Positions 2,505 to 30,348 of a stretch of 31,384 nucleotides of DNA are shown here, in pieces. Source of the DNA: Psammoneis japonica (taxonomy: Eukaryota). Below the pieces are notes generated by a model, which made no database searches, was not told the DNA's origin, and worked only from the letters and a program-made list of their open reading frames with translations. Both the position numbers and the translations under genes were made by a program. Each line of letters starts with the position of its first letter. Positions within the stretch are counted from its first letter, which is position 1. The stretch lies in assembly GCA_008632985.1 (NCBI GenBank), contig QPGO01000073.1, positions 372,001 through 403,384 of the forward strand, written 5' to 3'.

Positions 2505-3375
2505 ATAAAACAAGGAAGACAATTGTGATTTTTGTGTACAGACAGCAATAGATTGTTGTTTTAGAATTGCGCCAGAGAGAGGAGAGAGAAACAATGGCAG
2601 GAGACATTTCTTTATGCTTTTCTCATTTTAAAGGCATTGACGACCCTTGAAACAAGGCCAGTTCTTCAGAGTGGAAGAGAACGGACTCAAGCGTTGGATT
2701 GATGGCACGGGGCTTGGTTGCTGGGTTCTTCTTTCTGGCCAGCAGCCATCTCTGTTTGCTGGAGCACAGAGTGCTGGCAGCCTGGATCTAGTGGACAGAA
2801 AACCTGCTGCAAAGGAGTGGCTGTGCCTGCATTGGCAGCAGCCGGCACTGCATCATCTTCCCACACAATGTGTGGGGGAGTGCCGCCAACTCAATTTCTG
2901 AGCTTTTGATGCTGGTGACTCTCCAGGGATGTGGTGTGGAGAGGCAAAAGCCAATGTGTTTTGGCCATTTGCAAAAAAGTGCACAAAGAGAGAAAAAGCC
3001 TCACTGGACTGTGATCTGGTGGGGCGGCATGTTGCTTTCAAGAAAAAAAGAATGACGCGGGTTTCTGCCGACCGAGCAAAATGTTGGCTCTCCAGAAAGA
3101 AGTGGGCTGCCATTCACAGGGACCCAAGTCCACTGTTGCAGAATGTTTGGTCATTTTGTGCACACATGGTGCTTGCATTCCATGCAGCTCTCATGGCAGC
3201 TTTGGTGGCTGGGAGCAAGGTGAGACGAGAAAGCAGGGTGCGTGACTGACGCCCTTGACACCAACTTTGATCAAATCTTCAGCGGCTTGATCCTCAAGCC
3301 CATGAGGTGGGGCATCTTCATGAAAAGCTCCCTGCATTGATGATGCAGAGTTGGCACATGGGGTGGTGCAGGCAA

Positions 3376-3851
3376 TGTTTGTTTGTTTGTTTGCCTGTCA
3401 GATTCTGAGGTGGACGTGTCTTTGGCCAAAAGGTGGCCCATGTTTGCTCTTGTGCAAACAGTGCACCTGCTGGCCCGTGACTGCAACAATGGAACAACAG
3501 AGTCAGTGCATTGGGCATTGCTTGTTTGTCTGTCAGGTGCATGGGTGGCACACATCTTGAGCCACAAGGCTGTGCATTCTTTGCTTTGTGTGCACAAACA
3601 ACACCAGCTGGCCCACACTCACAAAGGCACCACCGCCAGCACAGTTCCACCAAATGCCTCAATGGTTGTGTGAATGGCACAGAAATGGCACGTGGGTGTT
3701 GTTTGTTTGTCAAGCATGCAGAAGAGGAGTGAGGTGCATGTCTTGAGTTACAAGGGGGCTTTTCACTCTTGCTTTGTGTGTGCACACAAGCAACACCTGG
3801 CTGCTGTGCTCACAAAGGCTGGCTCAACTCTGCCAAGTGCCTCAACAGCTG
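3376..3851. repeat. Degenerate tandem repeat, about 3 units of 145-180 bp
   Basis: Recurring TTGTTTG(T/C)(C/T)TGTCA ... TCTT ... TTGCT(T/C)TGTG(TG)CA ... CACC.GCTG. Units 2 and 3 also share CTCACAAAGGC ... CCAA.TGCCTCAA. Units start near 3380, 3521 and 3698. Confidence 0.55.
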
Positions 3852-4034
3852 TTGCTTTGAGTGCTCATTGGCTGTCTTGCATCTTGGCTGCACAACCCAC
3901 CACCATTTGTGCTCCAGCAGTGGGAGAGAGTTCCCCAAGCTCTGCTTTGAGTTCATGTGAACTCTCTCTCCTGGGACTTGTTCCAGTCTCAGGTGCACAC
4001 ATGCACAAAAAAATGCCCTTTTCAACAGAGTCAA

Positions 4035-4499
4035 GGGTGGAAAATCCCTTGTTTTGGGGGGAATTTTAGCAATTTCACAGGCAAAATGGCTAAAACAAGA
4101 CAGTGATTTTTGCAAACGTGCACAATCAATGGAAAAACACACTCAAACGGCTTGAGTGTGAATGCCGAGCGAGCTCACTGTGCAAACAACAACACAACAC
4201 AATGGCCGAAATGCCATTTGTCAAACACAGTGGAGGTGGGGAGGCCTCCAACTTTCTTCACAAGTTTGTCACCCACATCAAACATGACACACTTGTGAAA
4301 AAAAGGTCAAGGCTGCCCCACTGAGTTTTCAAGAAATGACGGCATTTTTTGGCCATTGTTGTGTTGTTTGCACAGTGAGCACAGAATGGGTTGGCGTGTG
4401 TTTTTCCACAATTGAGTCACAAATGAAGAAGACACCACCAGTCATTTTTGGTGCTTTTTGCACCAAATGCATGAAAAAAAAGCAAGAGATTTCCCACCC
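4035..4499. mobile_element. MITE, decayed copy A (same family as 14340-14783)
   Basis: Termini GGGTGGAAAATCCCTTG ... CAAGAGATTTCCCACCC. Colinear over its whole length with copy B. Flanked on both sides by TCAA (4031-4034, 4500-4503), where copy B has TTAA. Confidence 0.88.
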
Positions 4500-5186
4500 T
4501 CAAAACCCAATGAATTTCAAATGTGTTGATGTGGGCGTGCATGCAGAAAGGTCTTGTTTGTGCAATCATGTGTGCAAAACTGAGGATGCACAAGATGACA
4601 TGGGAGCTCAGTTTTCCAATGAGCAGTTTGTGGTCCCAAGCACAAGTTGCTCTCAATGGAATGAATGAAAACACTTGTCATTGACAAATGAGTTTTAAAA
4701 GACATGAGAAGATGTGAAACTCAGCCCATGCAATGGAGCCAGCTTTGGACACTTTTTTGCCACTTTGATGACACAAATGACTGGGAGTGCTTGTGCCGGT
4801 TGATGGTTGATGACACGGAGGAAGCGCACATGGCAGTGTGAAAAAGAGCTTGCCCTCAGAGACCAACTGTGAGTGAAATGAGGCTCAATTGTTGATGCTG
4901 ACAGATGTGTTTTTTTCTGCTGTGCTGCAGATTGCAACAGGCATTTTTTGTCATTGCCATTGATGGCACAGACTGTGTGAAATGCCATGGTCCTTGTCAT
5001 GTCATTCAATTTTCCACAAAACTGAAAATGGCAGGCTGTCATGGTTGCTGAAAGCCATGGCCATTTTGGCTGTGTTGGTTGGCTTGAATTTCATCTTTGC
5101 AGCTGATGTTGAAGAAAACACAAAATGTTTGTTTTTTGTGAAAAAAAAAACTACGAGGTCCCACCTGCCAGGGCTGGAACTCATCA

Positions 5187-5700
5187 CAAAACTGGGTCCA
5201 TCCTGCCAGATTTTCTTTCCACTTTGTTCTCTCCACAGTTCTTCCAGCAGGTCTTGTAGACTGGGAAAGGTCTGCACTGCCTTGCACCATCTTTGACCTG
5301 CAAATCATCACTGAACACAGCCATGCAGTCTAAAACTTGTCCATCTCTTTCTCTCAAATGCTTCGCTCTTTCTTTGAAAAGTGCTGTGTTGACAGAATCT
5401 CTGTCTTCATTTCTGTGTGTTGTGTGCTTTGTGTCCTTGGGCAGCTGCTTTCATTTGTCATGTCCATGTCTGCAAGTGTGACTTTTCCATGATCCCAGAA
5501 GCGCTTCAGAAGCTTTCCCCATTTTGGGTCATCCTTGAATCTGTGCATGCCATGCAGCTCGTCCATGCAGCACTTCACCCAATCTTGGAATTCCACACGT
5601 CTCTTTGCACAAAGGACAGATGTTGCAACCCACTGGTGCTCTGGCTGCCTGGAATCACCTGCAGACACTGCGTTCATCCCTCTGCAAGGTTTTCCCAGGC
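5187..5700 (-). mobile_element. Decayed PIF1-family helicase fragment, probably from a Helitron
   Basis: GKPCRGMNAVSAGDSRQPE resembles PIF1 motif III (PFGG.N...GDF.QL). ELHGMHRFKDDPKWGKLLKRF..GKVT.AD resembles motif IV. After a frameshift it continues LPKDTKHTTHRNEDRDSVN...CWKNCGE...RMDPVL and then breaks off. Confidence 0.72.
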
Positions 5701-7707
5701 TGTGCTTTAATGTGGCTTTCTGGTGCAGGTTCAACACATCAAAGTGCATGGTTGTACATGCAATGCCATTCATTTTTATCTTGCAATGTGCAAGACTGCC
5801 TTGTGGCTTCTTCTGTCTCCCTCCGACACAGCTGAAAAAGCAACCACATGTCTTGACTGGTGTGAGCAGTGCAAGCTCCATTTCGGCCAGAGATGTGTGG
5901 GGCAAACAGCGCACCCACAGCGTGCGACAAGCACTTTGTCAAGAGAGCACAAAATGGGTCAGAGCACAACACAAAGGAGGCAAGGATGACATGCGTTCAT
6001 CTGCCAGCATTGGCCCTGCCGGGCACACAACCCTTGCCGGACCAAATGCAGCCTTTGCAATGGGACCACTCACCCCGGGTCCCACCGTTGGAACATTGGG
6101 CAGCCTGTCCCCTGCCGTCGATGTGGACTCCAGGGTTTTGAGGGGGTGGCAAACCTCTCTCCAACAAAAAAAAGGGAGGAGCTGGAGACAAAATCAAGAA
6201 GGCCCTGAGTGAGCACAGCTGCACGCACTGCAAGAAGCCTGGTGGTCTCCAGTTGTGTGGGTGACACTTTGGGCCAGCAGCGCACCTCTTTGGGTCGCAG
6301 TTTGGCTTCTCCATTGTGGAGCTCACCACAGAGGATGTGATGGGGGCAAGGGTGGGGGTGCAGTGCCCAAAGCCAACCTCAAAGACTTGGGTGGAACTAG
6401 CTCACTTGTTCAAGCTGAGGTCTGACTGTGGCACATTTTTTCCAAAGCTTCTGTCCATGCCAAAAAATTGCTGCATCAAGTGAAAATCAAACCAGGAGTT
6501 GGCAGTGCTCAAAGACTCAATTGAAAATGACTGCTGTGAGCTCCTAGAGAACCCGGCAGCTGTTTTCCAGCATGGTGAAAGCAACCCCCAAAGCAGCCAA
6601 GAGGTGGAGCAAGTCTCCAGTGAGTTGGCCCAAGCTGAGGTTGAAGTCTTGCTGCTGGTTGCACTTGAGCCAGAGAGCCCAATGCCAGCAGCAGCACCAC
6701 TGGTTAACTGCTCTAGCACAACAAGTGGCCCATGTTGCAAGCACTGTGAACAATGATGGAAAGGGGCCAACCAGAGACAGTGCAGCGCAGCTCCTTTTGG
6801 GTGCCCCAGACCAGCCAGTGAGTGTTTGTGGCACAGACAGGAGGAGTGCATGCCAGTCAAACAAAAGAGCATTGCTGTGAGTGTGCCAGAAGCTGCAGAA
6901 GGGTGCAGTTCTTGGGTGAGGCAGTGGCACAAAAACAAGCGCCGTGCAGAGAGGGCTGCAGAGCTCTGAAAGAAAAAGAAACAGCAGCAAGTCACACTCA
7001 GTTCTGTGCAAAAATCAGTGCCAAGCTCTGTGGCAAAAAACCAAAAAACATCAGGCCCACATTGCAAGAGCACCGAGAGAGCTCCTTTGTTGTTGCCACA
7101 AGGGCTGGGTGGCACACAAGCTTGAAGCAACACCACACTGGGGGGCCAGCGGCCACAAGCTGGCAAACAACAGCAAAAAAAAGAGTGGTGGAGTTGGGCA
7201 CAGTTGCCCATGGCTGAAGAAGACAGAGAAAAGTTGAGCTGTGTGCTGACTGTGAGCAGGGATGAGCGCCACACTGTTCACCACCCAAGCACAGCCACGT
7301 TCTTTTCTCTGCACTTTTCGACGTTGGCCTGAGGACTGGAGCATGCTGCCATTCTGCAACAGCCCTCAGCAGACCAACATCTCTTGAAAATCAAGTGTGG
7401 CAAATGGGTAACAGTCACTGTCACTGCCAGTTTGGGTTGATCCGGCTGGTGGTGGCATTGAAAAAGGTCAGCACAAAAAAGTCTAGAAAACGTCGCGTGC
7501 GGACAGACCACCACTGCGAAATGCTGAACGTGTGGTGACACCCAAGTTCTAGAGGGATGACAAGATCTACTGTGTTGTGAACTACACTACCCTGTGTTGC
7601 AACTATGAGCTTGGTTCTCAGTGTTGTAGTTTGTTACGCAATGATCACGAATGCACCTGTCAGATTTTGAGCGCATCTTTTGCCCAAAACAATTTTTGCG
7701 CACCGCG

Positions 7708-9792
7708 TTAAGCGCATTGCTTGTTTTGACCATTTCCTGTGAATCCATTGCAGCAATTGCTGCAATTTCCAGTGCATGTCACACCTGCACCATCACAAGG
7801 AGGTGGACTTGCCACTGGCGCTGGCGTTGAACCGGGTTGACCGTTGCACGACTTGTTGTTGCCGCTTCCAGAGTATCCATAGCAGCAATCGTTGCAGGCA
7901 CCACCCGAGCACGGACCTGGTCCGAGGCACGGTTCTGTTGGAGAAAACGATGGTGACACAGTCGGAAAAGGCGTCGAGCTCAACGTTGGTGATGCGGTCG
8001 GAGAAGGCGTCGGGCTCAACGTTGGTGAAGGCGACGGTTCCGGCGTTGGAGGCGACGCGCCTCCCAAAACATTGCAGGCTGCAGGATAATGCGCCTCCAG
8101 CATCTCAGGCAGGACCACTTCTCCAAAGGCCGTGAGTACATCTTCCTGCATGTCCCAAAAGTTGGCTCTCAGATATCGCGGGAATTCAATTTGAACACCA
8201 TCAATCGAACCTCCAGACTGACTTCCGTGAGTTTCAACGTTGTAGCCACCCTGAAAATACGATTCTCCTTCAGCTGGAGCGCTAACCATGGGTGATGGAA
8301 CGGACAAGTATCCAGACGCGTTTGCAGCAGTCGGCAGCTCAAACAGTGCCCCCATACTCCAGATGCCACGCACGATACTTGAAAAGGAAGCGTTATTGTG
8401 CGTGGGCATGTTCTTGATAGAGCTCGTATAAGCCAGGCCGTCCACAAAAGAGTCATCTTCGCGTAATTGACTAGAAGAGAGCTTGTATCCTAGTTCAATG
8501 CGCGCTTCGGGATGAATGTGTCCATGAAAGTCAACAAGCAGACCGGCACCGCATGGGTGGTTGTTTTCAATGTCTGCTCGTGCGGCGGTGGCAAAGATGT
8601 GGAAATCGTTGTATGTGTCAATAGCCGTTTGGTCAAACTGCGCCGCCTCGTCGATTTCGCGATTGGGATCGAGCTTGATTCGACCAAGACGATTGACGAC
8701 TAAATGGCATGTCTCTCCCGTATACGCTTCAAAGACGTCATTAGCTCTGCGAGCCATGTCTTGGGTGTTTTCGTCGTTTGCGGTAACGGCACGACAATTG
8801 GTCGAATCCTCTGGTGTACACGTTTTGCTCCAATCACAACTTGTACCATCCCAACATCCGTGGGTACGGTCGTCAATGTCGCCGGGATAAAGGTCGCCAT
8901 CGTGACCCGTGAGAATGATGCATGCCGCCGTTCCGGGAATGTATTCAGTGTACCCGTTGGCTCCGCGTTGACCTGTGCGAATCGTAAAGGGAGTTGATGG
9001 TGCTTGGTAGTCAGAAAGACGAATTGAAGAAGTTGACGTTGTCTTGAAGCGTTTGCGATTGACCATCCACTCCTTGAGGGTATCCAGTGTCGCAGACTGC
9101 ACAAGAAGCATATATTAGAAAAGAACGGAAAGATGGTGAGAGGAACAGTTTCCAAAAATAAGTTGTCCTTTGTATCTTGGTTTTTGACTTTTTTGCCTTA
9201 CCTTGGCATACCAGGGTCGGTACCAAAAGCTATCGGAGTGATCGAATGAAACCGCCGATACTCCATCCACGAGACCGGTGGGCACGGCGCTCTGATCCGA
9301 TCCCGATACGCTAGCGCAATCTTCCCAACCTCCCGTTGAGTCAAACGCAAAAATCAAGCTAGGGCTGGTCGTGTCTCCTTGATAGATAATGAGCTGGTCA
9401 CCATTTCCAGTGGTAAACGAGACAGTACCAGACAAAACCTCCCACTCCAACCCTTGTCCTTGGGGAGTGCTTTCGTCCTCAAATTCAAAAACGCTGCCAG
9501 CCGACACGGCCGTTTGAGCGGTGAATTTGATGACAGATTCACCGGATTGAAAGCCACTACAAGTCCACCCCTTGTCGGTAAAAAAGATTTCCGTTCCTGC
9601 TTCCAGTGACACCCAAGTCACAAATGCAAAAGCGTCGGGGTCATCCGAAGCAAAGGCAACAATCTGAATGTCGTTTGGAGAAAGGACTGTTGCAGCGTTG
9701 GTAAGGATCAGTTTGCTCGAGGAAAATAGTAACGCCGCCACCAGTGTCAGAGCGGCGTTGGACAAAAAAAGAAGCGGTGATGAGCTAACCAT
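7708..9792 (-). CDS. Secreted protein of about 659 aa: signal peptide, lamin-tail-like beta domain, N-formylglutamate amidohydrolase-like metallohydrolase, Pro/Ser/Thr linker and two Cys-rich repeats
   Basis: ATG at 9792 followed by a hydrophobic leader. A phase-0 intron at 9201-9097 (GTAAGG...CTAAT...TGCAG) joins the two listed ORFs. Motifs DIQIVAFASDDPDAFAFV..GTEIFFTDKGW, ILTGHDG, DENT, RIKLDPNR, LVDFHGH, GGYNV, QIEFP. Confidence 0.78.
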
Positions 9793-10177
9793 GGTCAAGA
9801 GTGAAGATGAAGAGGCAGGAGAGCGACGAGACAACAGACAAGCGAGTCAAAACAATGTTTCTTGAAGCCAATCTGAAATCCGTGTTGTGTTTTTTAGCAT
9901 AATACTTGTATAACTTCAAGTGACTCTCTTAAAAAGTAAGATAGTCGTACGACAGTTCGAGTCTTGGTTCAAGTTCAGTATTTATTGTCAATGACCTTCT
10001 CCAGGCACTCTCCACCGTGAGCCTCGCTGCGCGCTGTATGGTAGGGCCCGCTTACCGCTTATTTGCCAATCCGTTCTGCGGTGCCTATCATATGTGGATA
10101 TGGTAGAGGTAGTAGAGCAGGGAGCATTTTGACGTCGGGAAGTCTATTATTTGCATTACTATATTTTTCAAAACGTC

Positions 10178-19500: not shown

Positions 19501-20674
19501 GATGGACAAGCTTCCTCCCCAGCCTGACTGCGTCCTTTCTTGTTTCGGCAAGCTTGGACTTGATCATGAAATCGACCGCCTTGGAACCCACAAAAGTCTT
19601 TTTATATACCTTTAATCGGTACATGTGATCTTTTATAGGCATTTCATTCTCAAACACAAATGCAGCCTCTTGCAGCGGAGGGCATGACTTGTCGTGTTGA
19701 TGCTCGGCGTTACTGCTCGTGTCGTTATGGTCAGCATCGGAATGCGCGAATCGCTCGTCTTGAGGAGTAAAGCAATAAAAGAGAAAGTCGTCTCTAAACT
19801 CGTGCTGATTTAGGACGTGTCGAAACAGATTGTATTCTCTGGTGAGTGCTCTCCCTAGTTCCACAGCATGGTGTCTGGATCGGGCCATTCCTGATATCAC
19901 CATGTAGTCGACCGCGTCGCTTCCAATGAAAACATTATTGTACGTCTGAAAATGATACCGTAGATCTTTTGTTTCGATTTCATTTTCAAATGCCTTGGCC
20001 AATTCACTCAAGTCTTGAAAGGATGATGCCGAGTTCAAGGACAAGGATCCGAGAGAGCCTTCCTCCGAGTCGTCATCAAGCAATGCATGTCCATACGTAT
20101 GCATAAAACACCCAACTTCGTCTTGGATGGACACGAATCGATGATGCTTTGGAACAAATTGAAAGAATAAATATTCGTCTTTAAACGAGTGCTGTCGACA
20201 AACATGCTCCATCAAATTGTACTCCTTCATGAGGGCATTTCCAATCTGCACAGCATGCTTTCTCGAGTCTGCGAGCTTGTTTTTGACCAGAAAATCGACC
20301 GCCTCTCTAGCTACAAAGCAATTTGGATAATTCCGAAAGTGATACTTGTGATCCGATACCTTCATGCCGTTCTCAAATATTTCTCCAATGCGCATTAGAC
20401 TCATACCGTCCAACGAGCTCGCCAGGGAATATCCCGATTCGGATCTAGTAAAGTCGTCTGTAAAGCTGCCGCCTCTCGAGTTGATGGAAATATCTCTGGG
20501 CGGTGAAAAGCTCAGACCGTTTTCATAATGACTTTCTTTGTTAGTTTCGTGAGAGACAACCAATGTCGACATGGATGATAAGCGTGGATCACTGACGGGT
20601 GGTGGTGGTTCGGACGCGTGATCAAGTACTTCTAGTCGATCATCTTGCTTGCAACATTGAAAGATGCGCTTCAT
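16580..20674 (-). CDS. 1364-aa protein: six tandem DEP domains plus a C-terminal class II (edema factor/CyaA/ExoY-like) nucleotidyl cyclase-like domain
   Basis: Uninterrupted 4.1-kb ORF. Six repeats of consensus Y..TF.G..AVDF.V....A..R..AV.LG..L....LFEHV...H.FKD.YLFY.F (DEP). C-terminal WRP..GKGLDIKGKS..G.LSGFVPF.Q, VSDFDCF and VRHGAECFN..FPQ. Confidence 0.85.
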   Translation of the reverse strand: MKRIFQCCKQDDRLEVLDHASEPPPPVSDPRLSSMSTLVVSHETNKESHYENGLSFSPPRDISINSRGGSFTDDFTRSESGYSLASSLDGMSLMRIGEIFENGMKVSDHKYHFRNYPNCFVAREAVDFLVKNKLADSRKHAVQIGNALMKEYNLMEHVCRQHSFKDEYLFFQFVPKHHRFVSIQDEVGCFMHTYGHALLDDDSEEGSLGSLSLNSASSFQDLSELAKAFENEIETKDLRYHFQTYNNVFIGSDAVDYMVISGMARSRHHAVELGRALTREYNLFRHVLNQHEFRDDFLFYCFTPQDERFAHSDADHNDTSSNAEHQHDKSCPPLQEAAFVFENEMPIKDHMYRLKVYKKTFVGSKAVDFMIKSKLAETRKDAVRLGRKLVHQYNLFEHVCNEHDFQDDYFFYRFVPPERRITPDDEDSQHDVLFPDAYSDHSHVSSVGNSGNTPSLLQVANAFRKGVHVGTHVWRFKSYRNTFVASQAVDFLVNSSFAQTRREAVVLGRRLASEMHLFEHVTGDHSFKDDYLFFKFTSEKEKARRKESFASDMTSESDSLHLIAQSLRANVRVADNKYRMRTYKDTFIGREAVDLLVEEGLAENREHAVELGRQMATSFNLFEHCVRQHEFKDAYLFYRFVNMGELKPRVTRDDITDDTVVDLRELNEIAIEFEKGVKTSENRHHLRVYKDTFVGSDAVDFLVSRDASLSREDAVHVGQLLARAFNLFEHVSRQHPLKDEHLFYRFNPKSERYTYDLEKLAKFEETPVDTIGETTVSSTNDKDDGFSFSTKVERSQSFSMPAKSASTGDVKSFSAGSLDIHRRASVPVRPAAALRKADRVKIWSTTFRRVDPRYQILSAVNIVTQEKAYSLQDGIDRDVISDLLRGTDLAPMVFSIWRPTSFDAIRRMMLNEGTGKGLDIKGKSAKRGKLSGFVPFLQINENRHKYKVRTLPKDGRVRLFFKNKRAREVAAAKLEAVGQDMIETVRQASKILSNDRASESSQRDALKSMLLDVTDPSIIYIDDYSPQSYGMDLSVRVFWEACFVRQDCTRRAGSEFDTGRPSLPPFQDMNFASLRNRSTRNVKGMPKAVVLQYGTDDPLSPFEFVMAYEENGRVLPVVSDFDCFLIGTRNVRYSAPLPPDQLEVLTWCVDKIEEILESPPRPHSWTSRWLEVLRDSANDGFHPKVPQLGFGDPVSYSTMENTIHRLTSTAGPVRHGAECFNYYFPQDLDDEYLVISDTVPGNVCWKYLNVDELQDFLSEKIDGGYTFPLNPKNVLCDGGRWKELYDKLIASRMPHVQESMNVWYPENSGLRKQIEAIHSKHPEGFQRESLAEDSSRFCLEKNQPKDASFKITMESTNTILDVAA

Positions 20675-21163
20675 TTCTTTTATTTAAGTCAGTACCAGAA
20701 GTCAGATACCTTGAGCGCCTCAATCTATGAGAACTTAGCTAGAAGGGGAGTCAAAGAGAAAGAATAGATAAGGCATGCACAAGCAACACACACTCTTGAA
20801 AAATGCTCTTGCGTGTTGCGTGTTCCATCGCGAAGTTGCTCGCATGTTCGAGTGAAGGTCACGTTTGTCTTTGTTTATTGTGACATTTACAGAGATGTAG
20901 AAAATCGTATTATGACATAAGAAGGTCATATTCAATATAACGTAATTTAGAAAGCGTCCGATTCTTCAATTAACATTAAAAAATAAAAAGGAATGTCAAA
21001 GTCATTTTGATAGGTTACAGAGAAACCGATCACAAAAAATGACGCTCCGCTTGACAAAACTGCTTCTTTCCCTTTCCCCGCCACAAACATCGCATTACTT
21101 GAGTTGGCTATTGCATCTGACCATCGCTACTCCCCAATTCAACTTCACAAAGACGACCGCGAC

Positions 21164-22543
21164 ATGAAGAATGGGTACAGCAGCAGGCCCCAAAACCGGA
21201 GCGTTGTCGTTCATTGGCGTGCAGTGACGTTTGTATTTTTGATTGGTCTCTCGTTTCGTGGATTACACACAAACTTGAACGTGTTTCACTTGTTCATTCC
21301 AAAGTTTCTCGGCGAACAGACTCTAAGAGCGTTCGAAAGCAACGGTTTGTTTTCCAGCTCGTATAAAACAAAACTACCAGAAGCTCTTTTGCCCGTTACT
21401 TTTTCAGGCTGTTGCACCGGACACATTACGATATTACATGCGACATGCCTTACAGAGAAAGCTTGCAATGTTTCGCATTATCCTTTTTCCTCACCACAAG
21501 AGGCGTCATACTTTAAAAGGTCGGTGCTTAATGGTACAGAGAAGATGGAGTTGAGAAGAATTTGCATGCAAGCTGCAGAGCGAAAACCGCCTCCCCTGCG
21601 GTGGTGCTCATCCCAAAATCTGCCGACAGATGAAAAATATCCCATGGGTTGTAGTCAGATCTCCATGGGCGGTGGGTCTGGGCCGTACGATCGAGTCTTG
21701 TTGTTTCCGCAAGGAAAGCTAGCATTTTGTGGAATACCCAAAGCCGGAGTCACGCAGTGGATACAGTTTTTGCGATTTACCTTTGGAGCAAAAGATTACC
21801 AAAGCCCGCCATACTCCAAATCGGATGTAGGACATGCCATGTTTGATGCTATGCGCAAGGAAGTACAAGACGAAATTTGGAATGATGAGTCTTGGACAAA
21901 GGCGATCTTTATTCGCAACCCGGCCGAACGTTTGTTGTCAGGATATCTCGACAAGATTGAGGGCAATCAAAGATTCGTTGGAGCGAACGTGACGTTTGCA
22001 GATTTCGTTGATTTTCTTGCAATGAAGCAAGTACTCAGGTTAGATTCAGACAAGGGCCGATCACAAGGCATGTTCACTGGACTGTCCTGGAGAACTGATC
22101 CGCACTTTCGACCGCAGGCCTGGGCTTGCGGATTGTCAGAGGAAATGGACACGTTTCAATACGTCGCGTCAATGGACCGTGTCGCCTTCCATACAAAGTC
22201 ATTGCTACAGCAAGTAAATATGTGGGATTCTTTTGGACGTCATTATCGTTTGTCAAATGGGACAAAAGACACCGCATATGTAAAGTGGCCTCCCGATCCT
22301 CTGCAACAACAAGACGAGGAACTGGGTTTCCAGCAACAAGTGGGTAAGATTACCGACTCGGCGCGAGCGCACAACACTGGTGCAACAAGCAAGATCGACA
22401 AATACTATACTCCGGAAGTAATGAAGAGAGTACGAGATCTGTATTCGATGGATTTTGCGTTGTGGGATGCACTTCAAGTCGCCGACAAGGAGGGCTTTGT
22501 ACACGGCAATGACATTGTGAAGAAACTGAACCCAAAGTGTTGA
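21164..22543 (+). CDS. Carbohydrate sulfotransferase (Sulfotransfer_2 family), type II membrane protein, copy 1
   Basis: 5'-PAPS-binding motif FCGIPKAGVTQW, 3'-phosphate-binding motif FIRNPAERLLSGYLDK, DPHFRPQ...C, and LYSMDF. N-terminal hydrophobic anchor. First ATG is at 21164. Confidence 0.9.
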   Translation: MKNGYSSRPQNRSVVVHWRAVTFVFLIGLSFRGLHTNLNVFHLFIPKFLGEQTLRAFESNGLFSSSYKTKLPEALLPVTFSGCCTGHITILHATCLTEKACNVSHYPFSSPQEASYFKRSVLNGTEKMELRRICMQAAERKPPPLRWCSSQNLPTDEKYPMGCSQISMGGGSGPYDRVLLFPQGKLAFCGIPKAGVTQWIQFLRFTFGAKDYQSPPYSKSDVGHAMFDAMRKEVQDEIWNDESWTKAIFIRNPAERLLSGYLDKIEGNQRFVGANVTFADFVDFLAMKQVLRLDSDKGRSQGMFTGLSWRTDPHFRPQAWACGLSEEMDTFQYVASMDRVAFHTKSLLQQVNMWDSFGRHYRLSNGTKDTAYVKWPPDPLQQQDEELGFQQQVGKITDSARAHNTGATSKIDKYYTPEVMKRVRDLYSMDFALWDALQVADKEGFVHGNDIVKKLNPKC

Positions 22544-23511
22544 ATACAAGAATATACATTTCGCATTGGTTGCTTCTTCATTCCGCTCGCTCTTACTTGC
22601 TACAGGTCGACTCGCTCTCTTTCTTTATCACTGACGCCGACTAAGGAGCTGTTTATCCTCGCAGCTTTACTTTTTTCTAGTACGACAAAACAATGCTGCT
22701 ATTCCGTGACCGGCGTACTACAAACGTGAAGTTACAAACAAAACTATGATTCAAAAAGCAGCGTCGACGTTATTGTTATCGCTTTTGCATTTGTTTTGAA
22801 ATGAGATCGAAGAAAATGAAGTAGTCCTTCAAGTAGGGTCTCAAACATTCGCTGGGGCGCTTCCCTGAATTCTGGAAAACACGATCTCTCTACGAGCCAT
22901 GTAAGTTTCAACTAACAAACCCTTCAACTGCTACCGATACTAATGCCGTCACTGAAGTTAGTTTGGCATTTGGGATTTGCTCCAATCTCGAATCCCAGCC
23001 ACACTTACTGGTTCGGCCTCTCGGGTCGATCTAGAAAATGGGGAAGCGAGAGACACGATGCCTTCAAGCCCTACTTTCTAGAGATAAGTGCTGCATTTTC
23101 TAGTGTTTCTATCACAGAAATAACTCGCTCATCGTCCACAGTGGACGTTCAGTAATGTGAGCAAACTACTGTATGGATTCTAGGCCCCTGTACCGATAGA
23201 AAGCGAACCACAGCGTAGAAATCATTAACAATTGCTAATGAATATGATAATATCTCATTCCGCCACCAGAAATGTCCGAGACATTCGAATTGTTAAATGC
23301 AAATGACTGCAAGTGACAAATCCGGGATCACTCGATCACATGATCCAGATCCGCTTTACCGGATCCCAGATTTATGATAACTTCTATTTCGCACCCTCCC
23401 GCCTCCCACAACTCCCCGCTGCTTTCCTCATTCGCTTTCACGCCTCGACAAAAGAGTCATTTATTTTGAGTAGCCTATTGTGTTTGATCATCGCTTGAAG
23501 CAGAAGGTGAC

Positions 23512-24945
23512 ATGACGAACGAGGAAAGCAGGCAAAAACATCGGATCGTGAATTGGCATACGTTGACGTTTGCGAGTTTGATTGGTCTCTGTTTTCATGG
23601 ATTCCAAACGAGCTCAAGTTACTTTCACTCTTTCGTTCCAGAGTTCATAGGCGAACCGGCTCTGAGAGCTTTGGAATTCAACTATTTGTTTTCAAGCGAT
23701 ACTTCTCGCGAAAGTTCACTTGAAACGGAGCTGCCAGATGCTCTTCAACCGGTAACTTTTTCAGGCTGTTGCAGTGGACATTTTTCGGATTTCCATGCAA
23801 CATGCCTTACAGAGAAAGCTTGCAATGTCTCCTATTATCCATTTTCATCTCCGGAAGAGGCGTCATACTTTAAAGGATGGGAACTAAGCGGAAAAGAGAA
23901 GATGGAGTTGAGACAAAAATGTCTGGAGTACGCCGAGAGAAAACCTCCTCCTACACGATGGTGTTCATCAGAGAAACTTCCAACAGATGAGAAATACCCC
24001 ATGGGTTGTAGCATGAATTCCATGGGCGGTGGTTCAGGGCCTTATGATCGTGCATTAGTATTTCCGCAAGGAAAGCTGGCATTTTGTGGCATCCCCAAAG
24101 CCGGAGTCACGCAGTGGCTTCAGTTTTTGCGATTTACCTACGGTGCAAAGGATTACCTAAGCGTACCATATTTCAAGTCAGATGTAAGTTATTCTAGGCT
24201 CGATGTTTTGAGCGAAGAAGTGAGAGACGAAATTTGGAGTAACACATCATGGACCAAGGCGATCTTTATTCGTAACCCGGCTGAACGTTTGTTGTCTGGG
24301 TATCTTGACAAGATTGAGGGCAAACCAGTACATGTCGGTCACGCGAATGTGACCTTTGCAGAGTTCATCGATATCCTTGCAATGAAGAACATCACCAGAC
24401 TGAATTCAAAGAATGGCCCATCAACAGGAATGTTCACTGGGCTGTCATGGCATACTGATCCGCACTTTAGACCACAAGCTTGGGCATGCGGATTGTCTGA
24501 GGAATTGGACATGTTTCATTACGTCGCATCAATGGACCGTGTCGCCTTCCATACAAAATCATTGCTGCAGCAAGTAAATATGTGGGATTCCTTTGGACGT
24601 CATTATCGTTTGTCAAATAATGAAACAAACTCTATATTGACACCATGGAAAGTGTGGCCTCCCGAACCCCAGCTACAACGAGAAGGGGAGGCAGAACTGG
24701 GTTTCCAGCAACAAGTTGGCAAGATTACCGACTCGGCGCGAATGCACAATACTGGTGCAACAAGCAAAATCGACAAATATTATACTCCAGAGCTTATGAA
24801 GAGGGCGCGAGATGTTTATTGGATGGACTTTGCTTTATGGGATGCACTACAAGAGGCAGACAAGGAAGGCCTTGTACACGGCAAAGACATTGCAAAGAAA
24901 CTTAACCCAAAGTGTGGAATGCAAGAGTCGCCTTTAAAAAGCTAG
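23512..24945 (+). CDS. Carbohydrate sulfotransferase (Sulfotransfer_2 family), copy 2 (tandem paralog)
   Basis: Same motifs as copy 1, colinear, with high nucleotide similarity. Confidence 0.9.
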   Translation: MTNEESRQKHRIVNWHTLTFASLIGLCFHGFQTSSSYFHSFVPEFIGEPALRALEFNYLFSSDTSRESSLETELPDALQPVTFSGCCSGHFSDFHATCLTEKACNVSYYPFSSPEEASYFKGWELSGKEKMELRQKCLEYAERKPPPTRWCSSEKLPTDEKYPMGCSMNSMGGGSGPYDRALVFPQGKLAFCGIPKAGVTQWLQFLRFTYGAKDYLSVPYFKSDVSYSRLDVLSEEVRDEIWSNTSWTKAIFIRNPAERLLSGYLDKIEGKPVHVGHANVTFAEFIDILAMKNITRLNSKNGPSTGMFTGLSWHTDPHFRPQAWACGLSEELDMFHYVASMDRVAFHTKSLLQQVNMWDSFGRHYRLSNNETNSILTPWKVWPPEPQLQREGEAELGFQQQVGKITDSARMHNTGATSKIDKYYTPELMKRARDVYWMDFALWDALQEADKEGLVHGKDIAKKLNPKCGMQESPLKS

Positions 24946-25281
24946 TCGAGAAGTAGTGTTTTCGCTCGACAGACTAGAACTCCCTCGCTTTTCCGTTTTT
25001 CTCCCTGTGAATTCTATATGCTAGGCTACAGTAGTTGAGAAAGACAAACAAACAGAAATTAAACTATATAGCCAAAAGGCCCTGATTTATATATCTAGAA
25101 TGGCGATGTCGCCAGAAGGGTGTTGAAATATTAGTACACAAACCCGTATACAGACCTCCCATGTTGGGAGCGATGCAAAACCAATTTTGTAATATACCAC
25201 TCATGTATGCAAGTACAGAAAACGTAAACACGAACACAGCACACCAGATGGACCAAACAACCCTCGACATGCACAACCAAC

Positions 25282-25315
25282 ACACAAACCCCAACACAAA
25301 CCCCAACACAAACCC
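25282..25315. repeat. 12-bp tandem repeat (ACACAAACCCCA) x about 2.8
   Basis: Read directly. It lies just 3' of the 25332-26549 gene. Confidence 0.8.
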
Positions 25316-25331
25316 ACTACATAACCGTTCC

Positions 25332-26549
25332 TTACAAGGACGCATTTTTTGGAAAATGATACCGCGCCGCCAATTTGGGAGAAATGGCATTTTTCAAACG
25401 ACGAACAACTTGCTCCACCAAGAATGCACGAGGCGACAAATCTTGCTGCTGAAGCGCCTTGGTTGTCCAGGGAACAGCATGAAGGGGCGTGTAACAAATG
25501 GAAATGCCCGTGGCGACATGAAAATAAGGTGCCAGGGCGTCTTGGATGGCTTGGCATTCTCGAGAATACGTGTCCAACTCGGCCATGTCCACAATGTTGG
25601 ATGCCGTTTCGTCATAGATACCATTGTTACCCACCGCATCCATGTGGGCCTTCATCTTGACGAGCTTCTGCTGGACGCTTTCGGCTAGGGCCGGAAAGGC
25701 AGGATTATCCAGCATTCCCAACAAGGTGTGCGCAATCTTGTAGAATTGATAAATTTTCGACATGGCGTAGACATAATTGTACTTGAAAATCTTGTAGGTC
25801 GGGATCAAAAGCTCTTGCCCTTGAATGGTTTCGTGGCGGTCGGGATGATCACTGGGATTGGTTGCGTCCGTGCCGGTAAGCACGACGCGAAAGTTGGTCA
25901 TGCCAACAAGACACTCTTGCAGAGCCGTGCACAAGTTGGTGACGGACGCAACGTTGCGGGCAAAGGGATTCTCACCCGTATGACGACCCAAGGTAAAGTA
26001 CACGGTAAAGATCTTGTCGGGAGCATTTGCCTTGTAATCTGCAAGGGCCTGTTGGAAAACATTCCTGAATTCGTCGGCACCCACGTTTGCAACATCCAAG
26101 TGGGATTTGGGAATGTGTACAATGTTGGAGGGAAGATCCTTGACGGTGGACCGTGAAACAGTGTACACCTTGTCGCATGACCCCGAGAGAAACTCGACAA
26201 GGGTTTCTGAAATGGAGCTAGGTTTAGCTGCGTACTTGCCACCAAACACAATTGGAAATTCATTGGCGTTGGGCTTAAGCTGTTGCACGTCGGCCCATAT
26301 TTCCTTTTCTTGCTCCCACATGTCTTTATTGATATTGCGAAAGAATTCCAACACTTCTGGCATTGCTTCTGTTTCGTCCTTGAACTCTGGAAGAGAGACG
26401 AAGTGCTCCAGCTTTGCACGAATCGGAGTAGTCATCAAGAGCCTGTAATAAGCGAGTGTAGGAGAACCGCCAGTGGCCTTGACTGCCTCCTCTTGTTCAG
26501 CCAATAAGGCCTTCATGTGAGCTTGTGCAGCTTTATTTGTCGTCGACAT
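25332..26549 (-). CDS. 405-aa protein, possibly an atypical/extended short-chain dehydrogenase (NAD(P)-binding Rossmann fold)
   Basis: Clean ORF with normal composition. IVFGG...SSISETLVEFL....VYTVSRS (beta-alpha-beta-like), RNVASVTNL, VVLTGTDA, and YAMSK (YxxxK). Confidence 0.55.
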   Translation of the reverse strand: MSTTNKAAQAHMKALLAEQEEAVKATGGSPTLAYYRLLMTTPIRAKLEHFVSLPEFKDETEAMPEVLEFFRNINKDMWEQEKEIWADVQQLKPNANEFPIVFGGKYAAKPSSISETLVEFLSGSCDKVYTVSRSTVKDLPSNIVHIPKSHLDVANVGADEFRNVFQQALADYKANAPDKIFTVYFTLGRHTGENPFARNVASVTNLCTALQECLVGMTNFRVVLTGTDATNPSDHPDRHETIQGQELLIPTYKIFKYNYVYAMSKIYQFYKIAHTLLGMLDNPAFPALAESVQQKLVKMKAHMDAVGNNGIYDETASNIVDMAELDTYSRECQAIQDALAPYFHVATGISICYTPLHAVPWTTKALQQQDLSPRAFLVEQVVRRLKNAISPKLAARYHFPKNASL

Positions 26550-26841
26550 GGTGTATAGTTCTAATCACAGGAGAAAGAGAAATGAAGTTGTCTGTGGCTG
26601 CCGCTGTACGGATCGAGGATCGAGAGTGAGTCGAGGATACCATTAGCATTGACTCTTTGATAGAGATGATGAGATGCACGATGCACGAATCGGAGATTCC
26701 CGCCCTGCACGCCGTCCGCGCACCATGCGGGAAAACTGCTCAAACGCGCATGCACGCAAGCACACGGACATGAGCGAACACTCCACTAAGTGACATTTAA
26801 CGGTCATGATTGAGAGTTCCAGTCTTGGCTTTTCCAACCGA

Positions 26842-26917
26842 AAGTTTGAGCAATTGCTCCAACTTGCATCCACCATTTGATTGCTCGAACTTGCCAAGTT
26901 TGAGCAATTGCTCAAAC
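26842..26917. repeat. Duplicated palindromic motif AAGTTTGAGCAATTGCTC; the second copy is part of a perfect 20-bp palindrome
   Basis: Copies at 26842-26859 and 26896-26913. GTTTGAGCAATTGCTCAAAC at 26898-26917. A partial third copy lies near 26877-26894. Confidence 0.8.
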
Positions 26918-27456
26918 ATGTCATCAGCAGAGGGGCGAAAAAGGCGGCATGAATTGCAGGTCATCGTCCCCCCACACTGAACCATTGCACGCACCGCTTC
27001 GTTCATTGGGCGGACCCCTCACTGCTTAAATTGCACGGCCGCTTGTTGGGATCTCACCTTTTTTATTTGTTTGCACGTGTCCATGTTTGTCCTTCATCTG
27101 GTCATTGCCCACCAACATTGTGGTGTGTCATTTTTCAAGCTCCGACTTTGGCAACTCAACAATCGCCTGACCGGCACATGTTTGCAGTTGTCCCAGCATT
27201 TTCATTCCATTTTTTTCTTTGTTTGCACTCAGTGACATCTCCAATTTCTGATGGCAAGTTGTGCATTTGATGCACTCATGTTGCTTGTTTGTTGGCACAA
27301 TGTGTTGCCACAGCGGCACAGGAGCCACCATGAACGGCGCTGCGATCATGAGCGCGTCACGCATGCTGGCTGTGCATTGAGCAAACCGAATCATGTCACA
27401 AACACTTTGTTTTGCTTGCAATGATTCCACGGCAATTTCACCACATCAATTTTTGC

Positions 27457-29190
27457 TCACTTTGTTCTTTCTGAAGTTGACACTGGGGAATCCGCGCACC
27501 CTCGCGCAGCCTCCATGTCCCCTTTTTCTGGAGGACAATGGAAACACAACAGGCAATGAGGGCCTTTCTTGCAAGTCTGAACTGGCAGCTCACCCCTGAC
27601 TTTCCAGTGCTGCCTCATTTGTGGCACAATCCCAAGAATGGGTTGTTCCACTTTTTTTGATCTCTGGGACACAAGCTCAAGCGCAGTTCCCATTGCATTT
27701 GAAGCTGTGGCTGGACTTGCAAGGTGCAAAGGAAGAATGGGAAGGCCACCGGGTGGTTTGCTTTGCAGCACCAGAAAGTTGCAGAGGCCTTCAACAGCCT
27801 GGCTAGAGTGCTTTGGCAAGAACCTGACAGCCATGGTGGATTTCATGTGCCAGTTTGTCGAGTCAGAAAGTCTCTGCAATTGCTCAACGTTCCTTCAGAA
27901 GAGCAGCTTCATCAATGAAGCCAACTTCATGGCACAGATTCAGAGCATCACTGTGCCCATTGTGGAGACTTGTTTCCTCCCTCACATCATGTCCGAAAGA
28001 GGCAACAGCCACCACTGGTGCAAATTGGTCTTTTCTGAATGCTCACAACCAAAGACGATGGTGCACCCGAGCCATCTCCTTTGAATGGCTTCGACATGTT
28101 TGACAAGGTGGATGACATGGAATTTGTTCTCCAAGTGAAGGCCATGCCAGCTGATGCCTTTGATGGCATGCAGTGCTGTCAGGATGAAGTGTGCATCACA
28201 TGCTTTGATCTGCCGCCTCCCCACATTAACGAGGAGTGGACTCAAATGTTTGGTCAACCAGCGCGGGAGAAACTCAGTGCTGGATGGTGCAAAAACAAGC
28301 TCTGCTCAGTCCAGCTAAAAAACATGAGCCGAGGTGGCAGGAAACATGAGCACGAAGACAACTTGGACTGCTGCTGGCTCACATGCGACAACACTGAAGG
28401 TCTTTGCTCATTCGGCAAGGACAAGGTTGGCGACACTTGGTCATTGAAATTTTTGTCAAGCAGCTGTGGTGAGGCGGGAAATTGCTGCATTGACACGTTT
28501 GGAATGAGAGACCTTGTTGCAAGGGTGGGCTTTTTACACATGCCATCAACCGCAATTGCAGCCGGTTCATTGGGGATTGCTCTGGTCCAACTCATCTCTG
28601 CAAGGGTGATCTTTCCTCTCACCACCCTGAAAATTTCTTCCTTGATGATGGTTGCCCATGGGAGTTGGTTTCCTTGCGATTGAAGGGGGACACAATGCAG
28701 GATGCCATGGTGTTCCCTGCTTCAGTCATGTGGAATCGTTGGCTGTCATTGGCCAAGACCCCCATCTGCAATGTTGGTGATGACTTGGGTGTTCACAGTC
28801 ATTGTGTGCAGCTGGCAATGATGGCCAGCCACCAGATGGGCTTCAACTGCTTTTTCCACATCTGCACCAAACCACATGACTCACTGTGTGGTTGCAACTG
28901 TTTCGAAGCAACATGATCCTTTCATCTGCCAGCCGCAGTCGACAACTCATCTGGAGCCTGTGGCTGCTGACACACTTCATTGCACTGCACTCAACAAGCA
29001 AGGCAGATGCTGTTGGGCACCACACTCTTGAGGACAAAGAGACAACATGCTCCCATGTTCTCTTCTGCCATGTTCTCTCCAATTGAGTCCACAACTGGCT
29101 CAAGTTGGGAGAAGAGATGCACTTGTCAATGAGGAGCTCCTTGATCTTTCTCTGGCTGCCCACATGTCCATTGTCAACAATGGCTGTCAA
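27457..29190 (-). pseudogene. Decayed long coding sequence of unknown family
   Basis: Protein-like frames (…HHGILHCVPL..LPWATIIKEEIFRVVRGKITLAEMSWTRAIPNEP…; …RQIKACDAHFILTALHAIKGISWHGLHLENKF…) interrupted by TGA stops (consistent with CGA->TGA) and frameshifts. Tyr is absent and His/Cys are in excess. Confidence 0.45.
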
Positions 29191-29522
29191 GATGAGTTGT
29201 GTTCCGTGTGATGATGGCGCTGCTTTGCGGGCTTGTTGATGATGTGGTGGTCATGTGCCAAAAGCACGCACAGGAGTGCCGCAGCTGCATCAGAGTGCAC
29301 GACATCGCAATGTCTGCACACATGATAAAAACATGTTGCCACATTGTAAAATCTGCTTGTCCACACATGATGGTTTTTGTCATTTGGCCAATCATTGATC
29401 TCCTGCTGTTCTTCATGTTTGAACACAGATGTTTTTTAATTTTTGTGCTCTGCCTTTTTCACAACAACTGATGATCTTTAACGACAAGCCAAACATTTCA
29501 ATTGCATGCAATGAAATTTTCA

Positions 29523-30005
29523 TCATGTAAAGTGTGCACCAATTGTTTGGTCAACAACTGTGCTCCAATTTGCCCAGTCGTCCGCATCGTCCTCTTCATT
29601 CCATGTGTCTTGTCTGCTCTCTTGCAAGAATTTCAAATGTGCCACTGCTGCATTGGATGTTTCCTCGTCACCGTTCCAAAAAAGCCACGCTGCATTTCTT
29701 GCATTTGGGCGAACATCATCGAGAGGAAGAGGTCCCTCGAAGTGCTGAATCGCATCGCTGCTCCCCTCTTGACGTCGTGTCATTGGCTTCTTTTTGTCTT
29801 TCTTCATTTTGCCCATCCTGTTTTTCTCTTCCTTCCTTGTCTTGGCGCCGCCTGTTTTCACCGTCTCCAGCGTCTTTCCATCCGAATCCTTCTTTTTCAT
29901 TGATCCCGTCGCCGTTGCCTTCATCTCTTGTTGTTGTTGTTTTTTTTCTGTTGTGTCACTTTGTTTTGGATCCATGTTTCTGACTTCTCTCTGTGCTGTC
30001 TCCAT
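29523..30005 (-). pseudogene. 160-codon ORF, Lys-rich N-terminus and acidic/Trp-rich C-terminus; probably a TA-converted gene remnant
   Basis: Natural-looking charged composition, unlike the neighbouring spurious ORFs. No Tyr codons. Confidence 0.4.
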
Positions 30006-30348
30006 TTCCGAATGTTTCTTTGTGATTGTTCACATGCGTCACTTGAAGGCACCCACGTGTTTTTCACGTGCCTTAACGTGCATGCAGAAATCCATGTTGT
30101 TTTCCAGTGCATGCACCCTTTCTCCTGATGCTGTTCCACACAATGTTTTCTTCCATCAATTCCACACTCCGCACTGCCCTTTCCCGGTGTGATCTCATGC
30201 AGGATTTCCCTGGGAGAAGTCACACGCACGTCTGGCAGGTTTTTGTGTTTAAAACTCCAAATCGCACCAGGCGCACATGCAACTTCTCCCACACACCACT
30301 CTGGTGTGTTTCTACAGAAACCAGATTTTCAGTGTTGGAACAGCAACC

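Follow-up and report, generated by a model that had tools for sequence, protein, structure and literature searches.

TpA loss without matching CpG decay in a many-copy repeat of Psammoneis japonica

The TA-free stretch and its repeat unit

The DNA analysed here, a window of 31,384 nucleotides from Psammoneis japonica, is eukaryotic and intron-poor and carries genes for a 1364-residue protein with six DEP domains, MYND-RING-TPR and ankyrin proteins, two tandem sulfotransferases and an SPX protein, in addition to three blocks nearly devoid of the dinucleotide TA: B1 (~2600-7500), B2 (~12950-14200) and B3 (~26800 to the window end). The observed/expected ratio (O/E) of TA is ~0.05 in the three blocks versus 0.56 in the genes at 14952-26549; 814 TA are distributed over the 20,637 bp outside the blocks (0.0394 per bp), and all eight TA-free runs of at least 546 bp in the window lie inside the blocks. 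B3, which contains many-copy repeats and dead copies of a gene family, includes the 544-bp stretch at positions 29530-30073 that is the subject of this analysis. The stretch lies upstream of a mutated gene within a repeat unit, here called R, about 2 kb to the right of L, a second and broken member of the same gene family (Table 1).

This stretch (A 77, C 152, G 103, T 212) contains not a single TA where base content predicts 30.0, whereas CG occurs 25 times against an expectation of 28.8, a level like that of the gene region, and both CA (38; O/E 1.77) and TG (57; O/E 1.42) are in excess. The uninterrupted TA-free run, bounded by the TA at 29528 and the TA at 30074, measures 546 bp. At the TA rate of the gene region 21.5 TA would be expected in 544 bp (Poisson P(0) = 4.8e-10), and the 25 CG are compatible with the gene-region rate (λ = 27.9, P(X ≤ 25) = 0.33) and incompatible with the CG decay of B1 (λ = 5.8, P(X ≥ 25) = 3e-9) or of L (λ = 7.8, P = 8e-7). 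A preliminary description of this DNA had counted by hand zero TA and about 25 CG, the latter close to random expectation, which proves exact, and had correctly called the first block depleted of both dinucleotides (B1 in Table 1).

By sequence comparison the stretch appears to be non-coding. A 168-residue open reading frame (ORF) on the minus strand, 29523-30029, has no relatives among proteins of near its length or shorter and no Pfam match, and was rejected as a gene, ORFs of this size being common in TA-free DNA; when family proteins were compared with 28800-30400 by sensitive tblastn, the best E value was only 0.04, with a range to 0.7 over the stretch. In DNA without TA, TGA is the sole remaining stop codon, so that long overlapping ORFs arise on both strands (for example 6402-7277 and 29523-30029, both minus). 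The longest of this kind in B1 has 291 residues, and such ORFs are without relatives. For annotation, TA-free repeats must accordingly be expected to yield long false ORFs.

Runs X2 and X3 contain almost nothing of the stretch. Copy number was gauged from summed contig depth in one sequencing run (4014 contigs at 85-99+% likeness), which is a rough guide only: depth is ~55 over the single-copy gene at 24900-26600, 33-250 over 27070-29022 and 143-641 over 28806-29239, then 9,271-22,250 over 29240-30107, ~6,000-8,400 over 30108-30541 and 30976-31384, and 61,277-172,731 over 30542-30975, the part occupied by an inserted transposon. The rise over 29240-30107 places the stretch within a many-copy repeat, R, whose left edge is marked by the increase in depth near 29240-29288 and by one contig that joins at 29288. 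The gene that follows within R has as its closest intact relative P0001, a 407-residue protein from a metagenome assembly: P0001 residues 1-72 match 30349-30564 (tblastn, E = 7e-18) and residues 60-204 match 30919-31347 (E = 2e-53, 61% identity), the R ORF over the second coding piece matches P0001 with E = 2.8e-47 and 63% identity, and a one-base frameshift near 31345 is followed by P0001 residues 204-216, which match 31344-31382 in frame 3. The two coding pieces together hold one TA at a CG O/E of 0.78, and the upstream part (29288-30348) has O/E values of 0.11 for TA and 0.68 for CG. In the 1704 bp of R without its insertion, CG numbers 67 versus 89.6 at the gene-region rate (P = 0.008), a shortfall showing that erosion of CG has already begun in the unit of which the stretch is the CG-richest portion.

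The insertion is a 389-bp miniature inverted-repeat transposable element (MITE), bordered by loose contig ends at 30538 and 30926/30927 and situated in frame within the R gene, between the positions of P0001 residues 63 and 64; because it is inserted into R, it is younger than R. It is partly TA-depleted, with nine TA, and its family copies are polymorphic, TA versus TG or CA, at 30842, 30855, 30875, 30893 and 30897, where TA accounts for 56, 31, 13, 9 and 8% of family depth, respectively, and the window copy reads TG or CA. In these respects the MITE looks like the TA process caught midway.

L matches residues 93-136, 203-290 (E = 1.4e-11), 643-816 and 812-908 (E = 6.5e-24) of P0002, a 1135-residue long form of the family. 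With a depth of 33-250 it is nearly unique at 85% likeness, yet fully TA-erased, and it is best explained as an older copy of R's gene family in which both kinds of decay are finished. R and L thus form a natural experiment: one family, one block and one TA floor, with a threefold difference in CG.

Table 1. Features of the window with their observed/expected ratios (O/E) for TA and CG
Feature	Position	Strand	TA O/E	CG O/E	Description
TA-free, CG-normal stretch	29530-30073		0.00	0.87	276-819 bp upstream of the R start codon; apparently non-coding
Left part of repeat unit R	29288-30537	+			~1.06 kb of upstream DNA and the first 63 gene codons; left edge approximate
R gene, first coding piece	30349-30537	+			P0001 residues 1-63
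MITE	30538-30926		0.33	0.93	389 bp; 25-nt terminal inverted repeats, 80% complementary; TTGT target duplication at 30534-30537 and 30927-30930
R gene, second coding piece	30931-31384	+			P0001 residues 64-216; truncated by the window end
R unit without the MITE			0.08	0.73	1704 bp
L copy	27508-28856	+	0.05	0.27	Broken, long P0002-like form; three frames; ~350 middle residues missing
Left CG-poor part of B3	26800-29287		0.04	0.39	6 TA versus 155.8 expected
Block B2	12955-14197		0.05	0.53	TA-free, intermediate CG; overlaps the 5' part of an ACSF4-like ORF
Block B1	2790-7400		0.05	0.20	Poor in TA and CG
470-bp repeat, mutated copy	4033-4503	+			In B1; 74% identity to partner 14338-14787
470-bp repeat, unmutated copy	14338-14787	+	0.55	1.34	'Before' state

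Acquired loss of TA

Within the aligned part of P0001, ten Tyr residues are replaced in R by Cys (six), His (two), Gln (one) and Phe (one, at the frameshift). Neither R (213 residues) nor L (178 residues) contains any Tyr, versus 4-17 in eight relatives, and the single Tyr that is invariant in all eight is Cys in R and in L. Tyr codons are TAY, and the codons TGY (Cys) and CAY (His) are the products of TA to TG and TA to CA changes. The surroundings of intact relatives are ordinary in this respect: at two loci recovered on metagenome contigs with a narrower family alignment, L001 and L002, the TA O/E is 0.27-0.76 per 300 bp, and L001 has 112 TA in 3300 bp, 1.2 kb upstream of the gene included. 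Taken together, the replacement of Tyr by Cys and His and the ordinary TA of the intact relatives indicate that the loss was acquired, R and L being mutated copies rather than natively TA-free DNA. An unmutated homolog equally free of TA, which the preliminary description had named as contrary evidence, is not what the adjoining gene presents, as P0001 has ten Tyr codons where R has none.

The direction of change can be read from a 470-bp repeat with one mutated copy in B1 and one unmutated copy (Table 1). Of 22 TA in the latter, 13 are CA and 3 are TG in the former (16 of 22 in all), 2 are kept and 4 have become something else; the 26 CG have given 12 TG and 6 CA (18 of 26), with 2 kept and 6 otherwise altered. 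The steps changed include 20 of the 22 TA, versus 4 of 25 CA and 12 of 34 TG. In a control pair, the tandem sulfotransferase genes at 21207-22551 and 23546-24926, which are 78% identical over 1.35 kb and normal in TA and CG, loss of TA over 1345 aligned bp is symmetric (10 of 50 versus 11 of 54), and duplication at 78% identity alone appears not to draw the TA process. The unmutated 470-bp copy carries an internal 49-nt inverted repeat (14468-14516 and 14627-14675) and lies only ~140 bp from the edge of B2, a proximity that reflects either a sharp block border or a later insertion.

These observations leave little room for the idea that the element simply avoids TA, by native composition or by selection involving stop codons or TA-targeting transposons, and that nothing has mutated. 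Such an explanation would agree with the outcome of the searches for a DNA-level 'before' copy of the 544 bp, none of which found one: a 40-nt pattern from 29620-29659, degenerate at all CA, TG and CG steps, has no match in the metagenome contigs, ORF searches gave nothing, and self-comparison of the window in a purine/pyrimidine alphabet reveals no hidden copy of the stretch, its only matches being the 470-bp pair, the sulfotransferase pair and a tandem duplication in B1. It is scarcely credible in view of the adjoining gene, which is broken and has Cys or His codons in place of Tyr codons, the ordinary TA of intact relatives and the one-way loss in the 470-bp pair, which is unlike the sulfotransferase control. 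As no such 'before' copy is available, the ancestral TA and CG of the stretch are inferred from the adjoining gene and from differences within the family. The tandem duplication in B1, ~177 bp long (3522-3669 and 3699-3852), is visible only in the purine/pyrimidine alphabet.

Order of TA loss and CpG decay

Among 227 segments of 544 bp taken along the window, 66 are TA-low (O/E <0.15); CG is low in 43 of these, middling in 17 and normal in 6, spanning O/E values of 0.055-0.88, and none of the 227 is CG-poor (O/E <0.4) with a TA O/E of at least 0.35. Within the window the two losses are therefore nested rather than proportional, and the TA-low, CG-normal class that the preliminary description had proposed to look for exists. 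At a shared TA floor (O/E 0.03-0.08), CG O/E varies from 0.20 to 0.87. This independence of CG in TA-free DNA, together with the fact that the change of TA to CA or TG (A:T to G:C) runs opposite to that caused by methyl-CpG deamination, bears out the earlier proposal that TA loss is not a by-product of the latter.

The features of the window form a graded series in these two ratios, from the MITE through the R unit, the stretch, B2, the left part of B3 and L to B1 (Table 1). The series agrees with cues to age that do not involve dinucleotides, in that the MITE is nested in R, R is represented by many close copies and shows a single frameshift over 216 codons, and L is nearly unique, distributed over several frames and affected by a large deletion; this agreement supports, indirectly, that TA goes first. 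The earlier suggestion that TA loss is faster and saturates before CpG erodes is upheld to that extent, from end states only, and the core reading, a TA loss separate in kind from CpG deamination and first to saturate, holds.

Comparison of the R unit in the window with most other copies gives 17 best-supported differences: nine are CG elsewhere and TG or CA in the window, three are the reverse, with CG in the window, two constitute one linked TG-versus-CA pair and three are of other kinds. Eight of the 12 CpG differences fall inside the stretch, six of them lost in the window copy and two lost in others; in addition to all of its TA, the stretch is short of at least 6 CpG out of a minimum of 31. 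Judging from these differences, CpG in the R family is mutating copy by copy. The same sites bear on whether the CG of the stretch reflects protection rather than youth, as would be the case if it were an unmethylated promoter-like region and TpA erasure were independent of methylation, making CG uninformative on age. The location upstream of the R start codon and the CG O/E of 0.87, the highest in the unit (0.68 in the whole upstream part, 0.78 in the coding part), would suit such a region; protection is nonetheless improbable, because at least eight CpG sites of the stretch differ among copies and are hence mutating, and because the coding part of R keeps CG too, whereas the coding DNA of L does not (0.27).

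Several observations weigh against the reading that TA was erased in this DNA by a process of its own, ahead of CpG decay. No unmutated homolog of the 544 bp was found at the DNA level; summed contig depth is a coarse measure of copy number; among the places listed (41 of 238), none of the 17 best-supported differences clearly restores TA (the linked pair at 30069/30070 is TG in the window and CA in 84% of the depth); and the composition data alone fit one process with two rate constants. The lack of restored TA, the 12 of 17 differences at CpG and the single listed place with the TG-versus-CA alternative expected of independent erasure suit a history in which TA had already been erased in the progenitor from which the R family multiplied, CG being high as the copies are recent, nothing having happened at the locus itself and the stretch recording an event of earlier date. 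Alternatives at TA sites may lie among the remaining places, and erasure in place is indicated by the MITE, whose family retains TA in 8-56% of depth at five sites that read TG or CA here, and by position 26792 at the block edge, which is TG in the window and TA in related contigs (83% of depth). An inherited erased state, which may apply to R, would leave nothing datable at its locus; we regard it as unlikely without dismissing it, and it would alter only the history of the locus, the conclusion that TA goes before CG being unaffected.

The fit to one process with two rate constants corresponds to a single repeat-directed editor with two substrates, the self-complementary pyrimidine-purine steps TpA (fast) and CpG (slow), so that the uncoupling would be a difference in rate only. 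TG or CA is the product of both losses, which coincide in the same blocks and are strictly nested in that CG-poor DNA never retains its TA; the available text of a preprint on the alga Bigelowiella natans (Mettrop et al., bioRxiv 10.64898/2026.01.13.699255) cites an amphioxus ADAT2 for which deamination of A as well as C in DNA has been reported. At an equal TA floor, CG O/E nevertheless differs between features (the range of 0.20-0.87 given above), and the CpG differences of the R family resemble slow decay copy by copy. Moreover, the chemistry of the two changes is opposite, A:T to G:C in one and G:C to A:T in the other, and the decay of CpG in methylated repeats is established to need no special enzyme, all of which renders a single editor rather improbable. 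The argument for two processes comes from this opposite chemistry and the known behaviour of methylated CpG, not from data of this genome; a dedicated enzymatic process, as favoured in the preliminary description, is accordingly not established, one editor much faster on TpA than on CpG fitting as well.

The reading that we consider probable, with some reserve, is that two decay steps of very different speed act on repeat DNA in this genome. The first would be a domain-wide change of almost only TpA to TpG or CpA; this A:T to G:C transition, which could strike either strand, would near completion soon after a repeat is marked. Presumably enzymatic, it might be the work of a thymine-modifying enzyme whose product mispairs with G, or of a deaminase acting on adenine in DNA, the kind of enzyme proposed for Bigelowiella. 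The second, slower step would take CpG to TpG or CpA, most simply by deamination of 5-methylcytosine (5mC) in methylated repeats. R, young and present in many copies, would have completed the first step with no more than roughly a fifth to a quarter of its CpG gone, and L would have completed both. CG level would then track age, although CG O/E is shaped as well by methylation and by the initial CG content, the unmutated 470-bp repeat starting at 1.34; and with TA at its floor only CG carries time, so that the earlier idea of dating silencing by the ratio of TA to CG is not established. A stronger version is put forward tentatively, as a close call that tips slightly against it: a dedicated, methylation-independent editor, a defence like repeat-induced point mutation (RIP) with opposite chemistry, would rewrite nearly every TpA before measurable CpG decay, leaving residual CG as a silencing clock. 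As a bolder rider to this version, the many-copy element with the stretch would encode a protein of roughly 1100 residues whose C-terminal half is similar, in language-model features only, to thymine-hypermodifying enzymes, and the T to C changes could then stem from modification of thymine instead of deamination of adenine.

The pattern constrains the mechanism in three ways: deamination of 5mC cannot give rise to the TA process as a side effect, the TA process is much faster than CpG decay, and it affects coding DNA, non-coding DNA and a MITE without distinction. For annotation, changes of Tyr to Cys or His can hide the homology of transposons and genes; and if CG in erased DNA tracks age, repeat invasions could be ordered without pairs of long terminal repeats.

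Known systems, the gene family and neighbouring features

RIP, in Neurospora and other fungi, introduces dense dinucleotide-specific transitions into repeats, killing transposons and gene copies, with methylation and further decay to follow; its C:G to T:A transitions convert mainly CpA to TpA, creating TA and raising A+T, and it is triggered by duplication, acts before meiosis and depends on a cytosine methyltransferase of the RID or Dim-2 type. Here, too, dense dinucleotide-specific transitions are confined to repeated DNA, but TA is destroyed (TA O/E 0.00-0.08 and CA/TG O/E 1.4-1.9 in erased DNA), G+C rises and the 78%-identical tandem sulfotransferases are untouched; RIP is the nearest functional analogue and fails on its defining chemistry. 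As regards duplication as a trigger, many-copy R and the MITE are hit, the tandem 1.35-kb duplicates are spared and the nearly unique L is fully erased.

Deamination of 5mC leads to CpG decay in methylated transposons, and transposon methylation is known from diatoms. It matches the half of the pattern in which CG becomes TG or CA (18 of 26 in the 470-bp pair, 12 of the 17 R-unit differences), including its slow copy-by-copy course, but cannot yield TG or CA from TA, a base change in the opposite sense; in the stretch, TA is lost completely and 25 of ~29 CG are kept. Editing of the ADAR/APOBEC type acts on RNA or on single-stranded replication intermediates of retroelements and viruses, and resembles the present case in that selfish DNA acquires clusters of a single type of transition, at sites favoured by the neighbouring base. 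By contrast, the changes seen here affect non-coding upstream DNA, a gene fragment and a MITE, on both strands and in bounded chromosomal blocks, which points to erasure acting on resident DNA.

Hypermutation of selfish DNA that erases TpA has so far been described in one preprint, from an unrelated alga: the available text reports TpA-only T/A to C/G hypermutation of giant-virus and virophage DNA integrated in Bigelowiella natans, with rates measured in real time in mutation-accumulation lines and an ADAT2-like adenine deaminase proposed (Mettrop et al., bioRxiv 10.64898/2026.01.13.699255). The two cases share, as far as that text goes, a restriction to almost only T/A to C/G changes at TpA, the targeting of foreign or silent DNA with neighbouring genes spared, and long-term depletion of TpA. 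In the present window the mutated sites are likewise TpA (20 of 22 TA in the 470-bp pair, all ten Tyr codons of P0001), the changes go from T/A to C/G and give TpG or CpA (16 of 22; Cys six times and His twice, the control being undirected), and foreign or repeated DNA only is affected, with the caveat that an ACSF4-like ORF extends with its 5' part into B2. Unlike in that chlorarachniophyte, where integrated viruses are targeted and rates were measured, the targets here, in a different eukaryote, are transposon-like repeats and gene-family copies, and the process is known from end states alone. CpG has no occurrence in the preprint text as available, and the order of TA first and CG later is accordingly not in it. 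Full-text literature searches, taken at the level of listings and the beginnings of abstracts, returned no diatom paper on TA loss in repeats and no paper relating TpA-erasing hypermutation to cytosine methylation and CpG decay.

The R/L genes belong to an uncharacterised eukaryotic family of proteins of up to 1135 residues, with two dead copies in the window; besides P0001 it comprises seven more proteins at 27-35% identity, and the locus at 1172-3489 of L001 is a member. Sequence searches of Pfam, PHROG and PDB gave no match for the long form P0002, a word-index search with P0001 returned that protein alone, and the single-sequence AlphaFold model of P0002 is unusable (predicted local distance difference test score, pLDDT, 32.7). 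By language-model features in the ESM Atlas, the nearest neighbours of P0002 residues 560-1135 (score 0.87, 175 shared features) are phage clusters of amino-acid:DNA transferase (ADDT), 5-hmdU kinase (HMUDK) and thymine pyrophosphorylase (aGPT-Pplase), while scores for the R ORF are at most 0.82. The C-terminal half of P0002 may thus resemble thymine-hypermodifying enzymes, as judged by these features only, a possible likeness that deserves note given the T to C changes that this genome shows at TpA.

Elsewhere in the window, Rfam and tRNA scans gave nothing. None of 23 ORFs of B1 contains a Pfam family, and Pfam searches of 19 B3 ORFs and 28 B1/B2 ORFs returned, apart from six matches at chance level (E 0.011-0.3), only an ACSF4-like propeller (E = 4.7e-8) and a weak match to a carrier domain. 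In the ACSF4/AASDH-like gene concerned (11639-13282, minus strand), two ORFs (11639-12322 and 12249-12704) contain the beta-propeller, and a GGDS carrier motif lies near 12850-12970. The gene enters B2 with its upstream part, and no AMP-binding domain is detectable beyond it, so that the locus represents either truncation of the gene or damage done by B2 to a host gene. Over 1617 bp of the single-copy gene at 24900-26516, a contig of run X1 departs from the window sequence at five places and an X2 contig is identical to that sequence, the five differences probably representing allelic variation.

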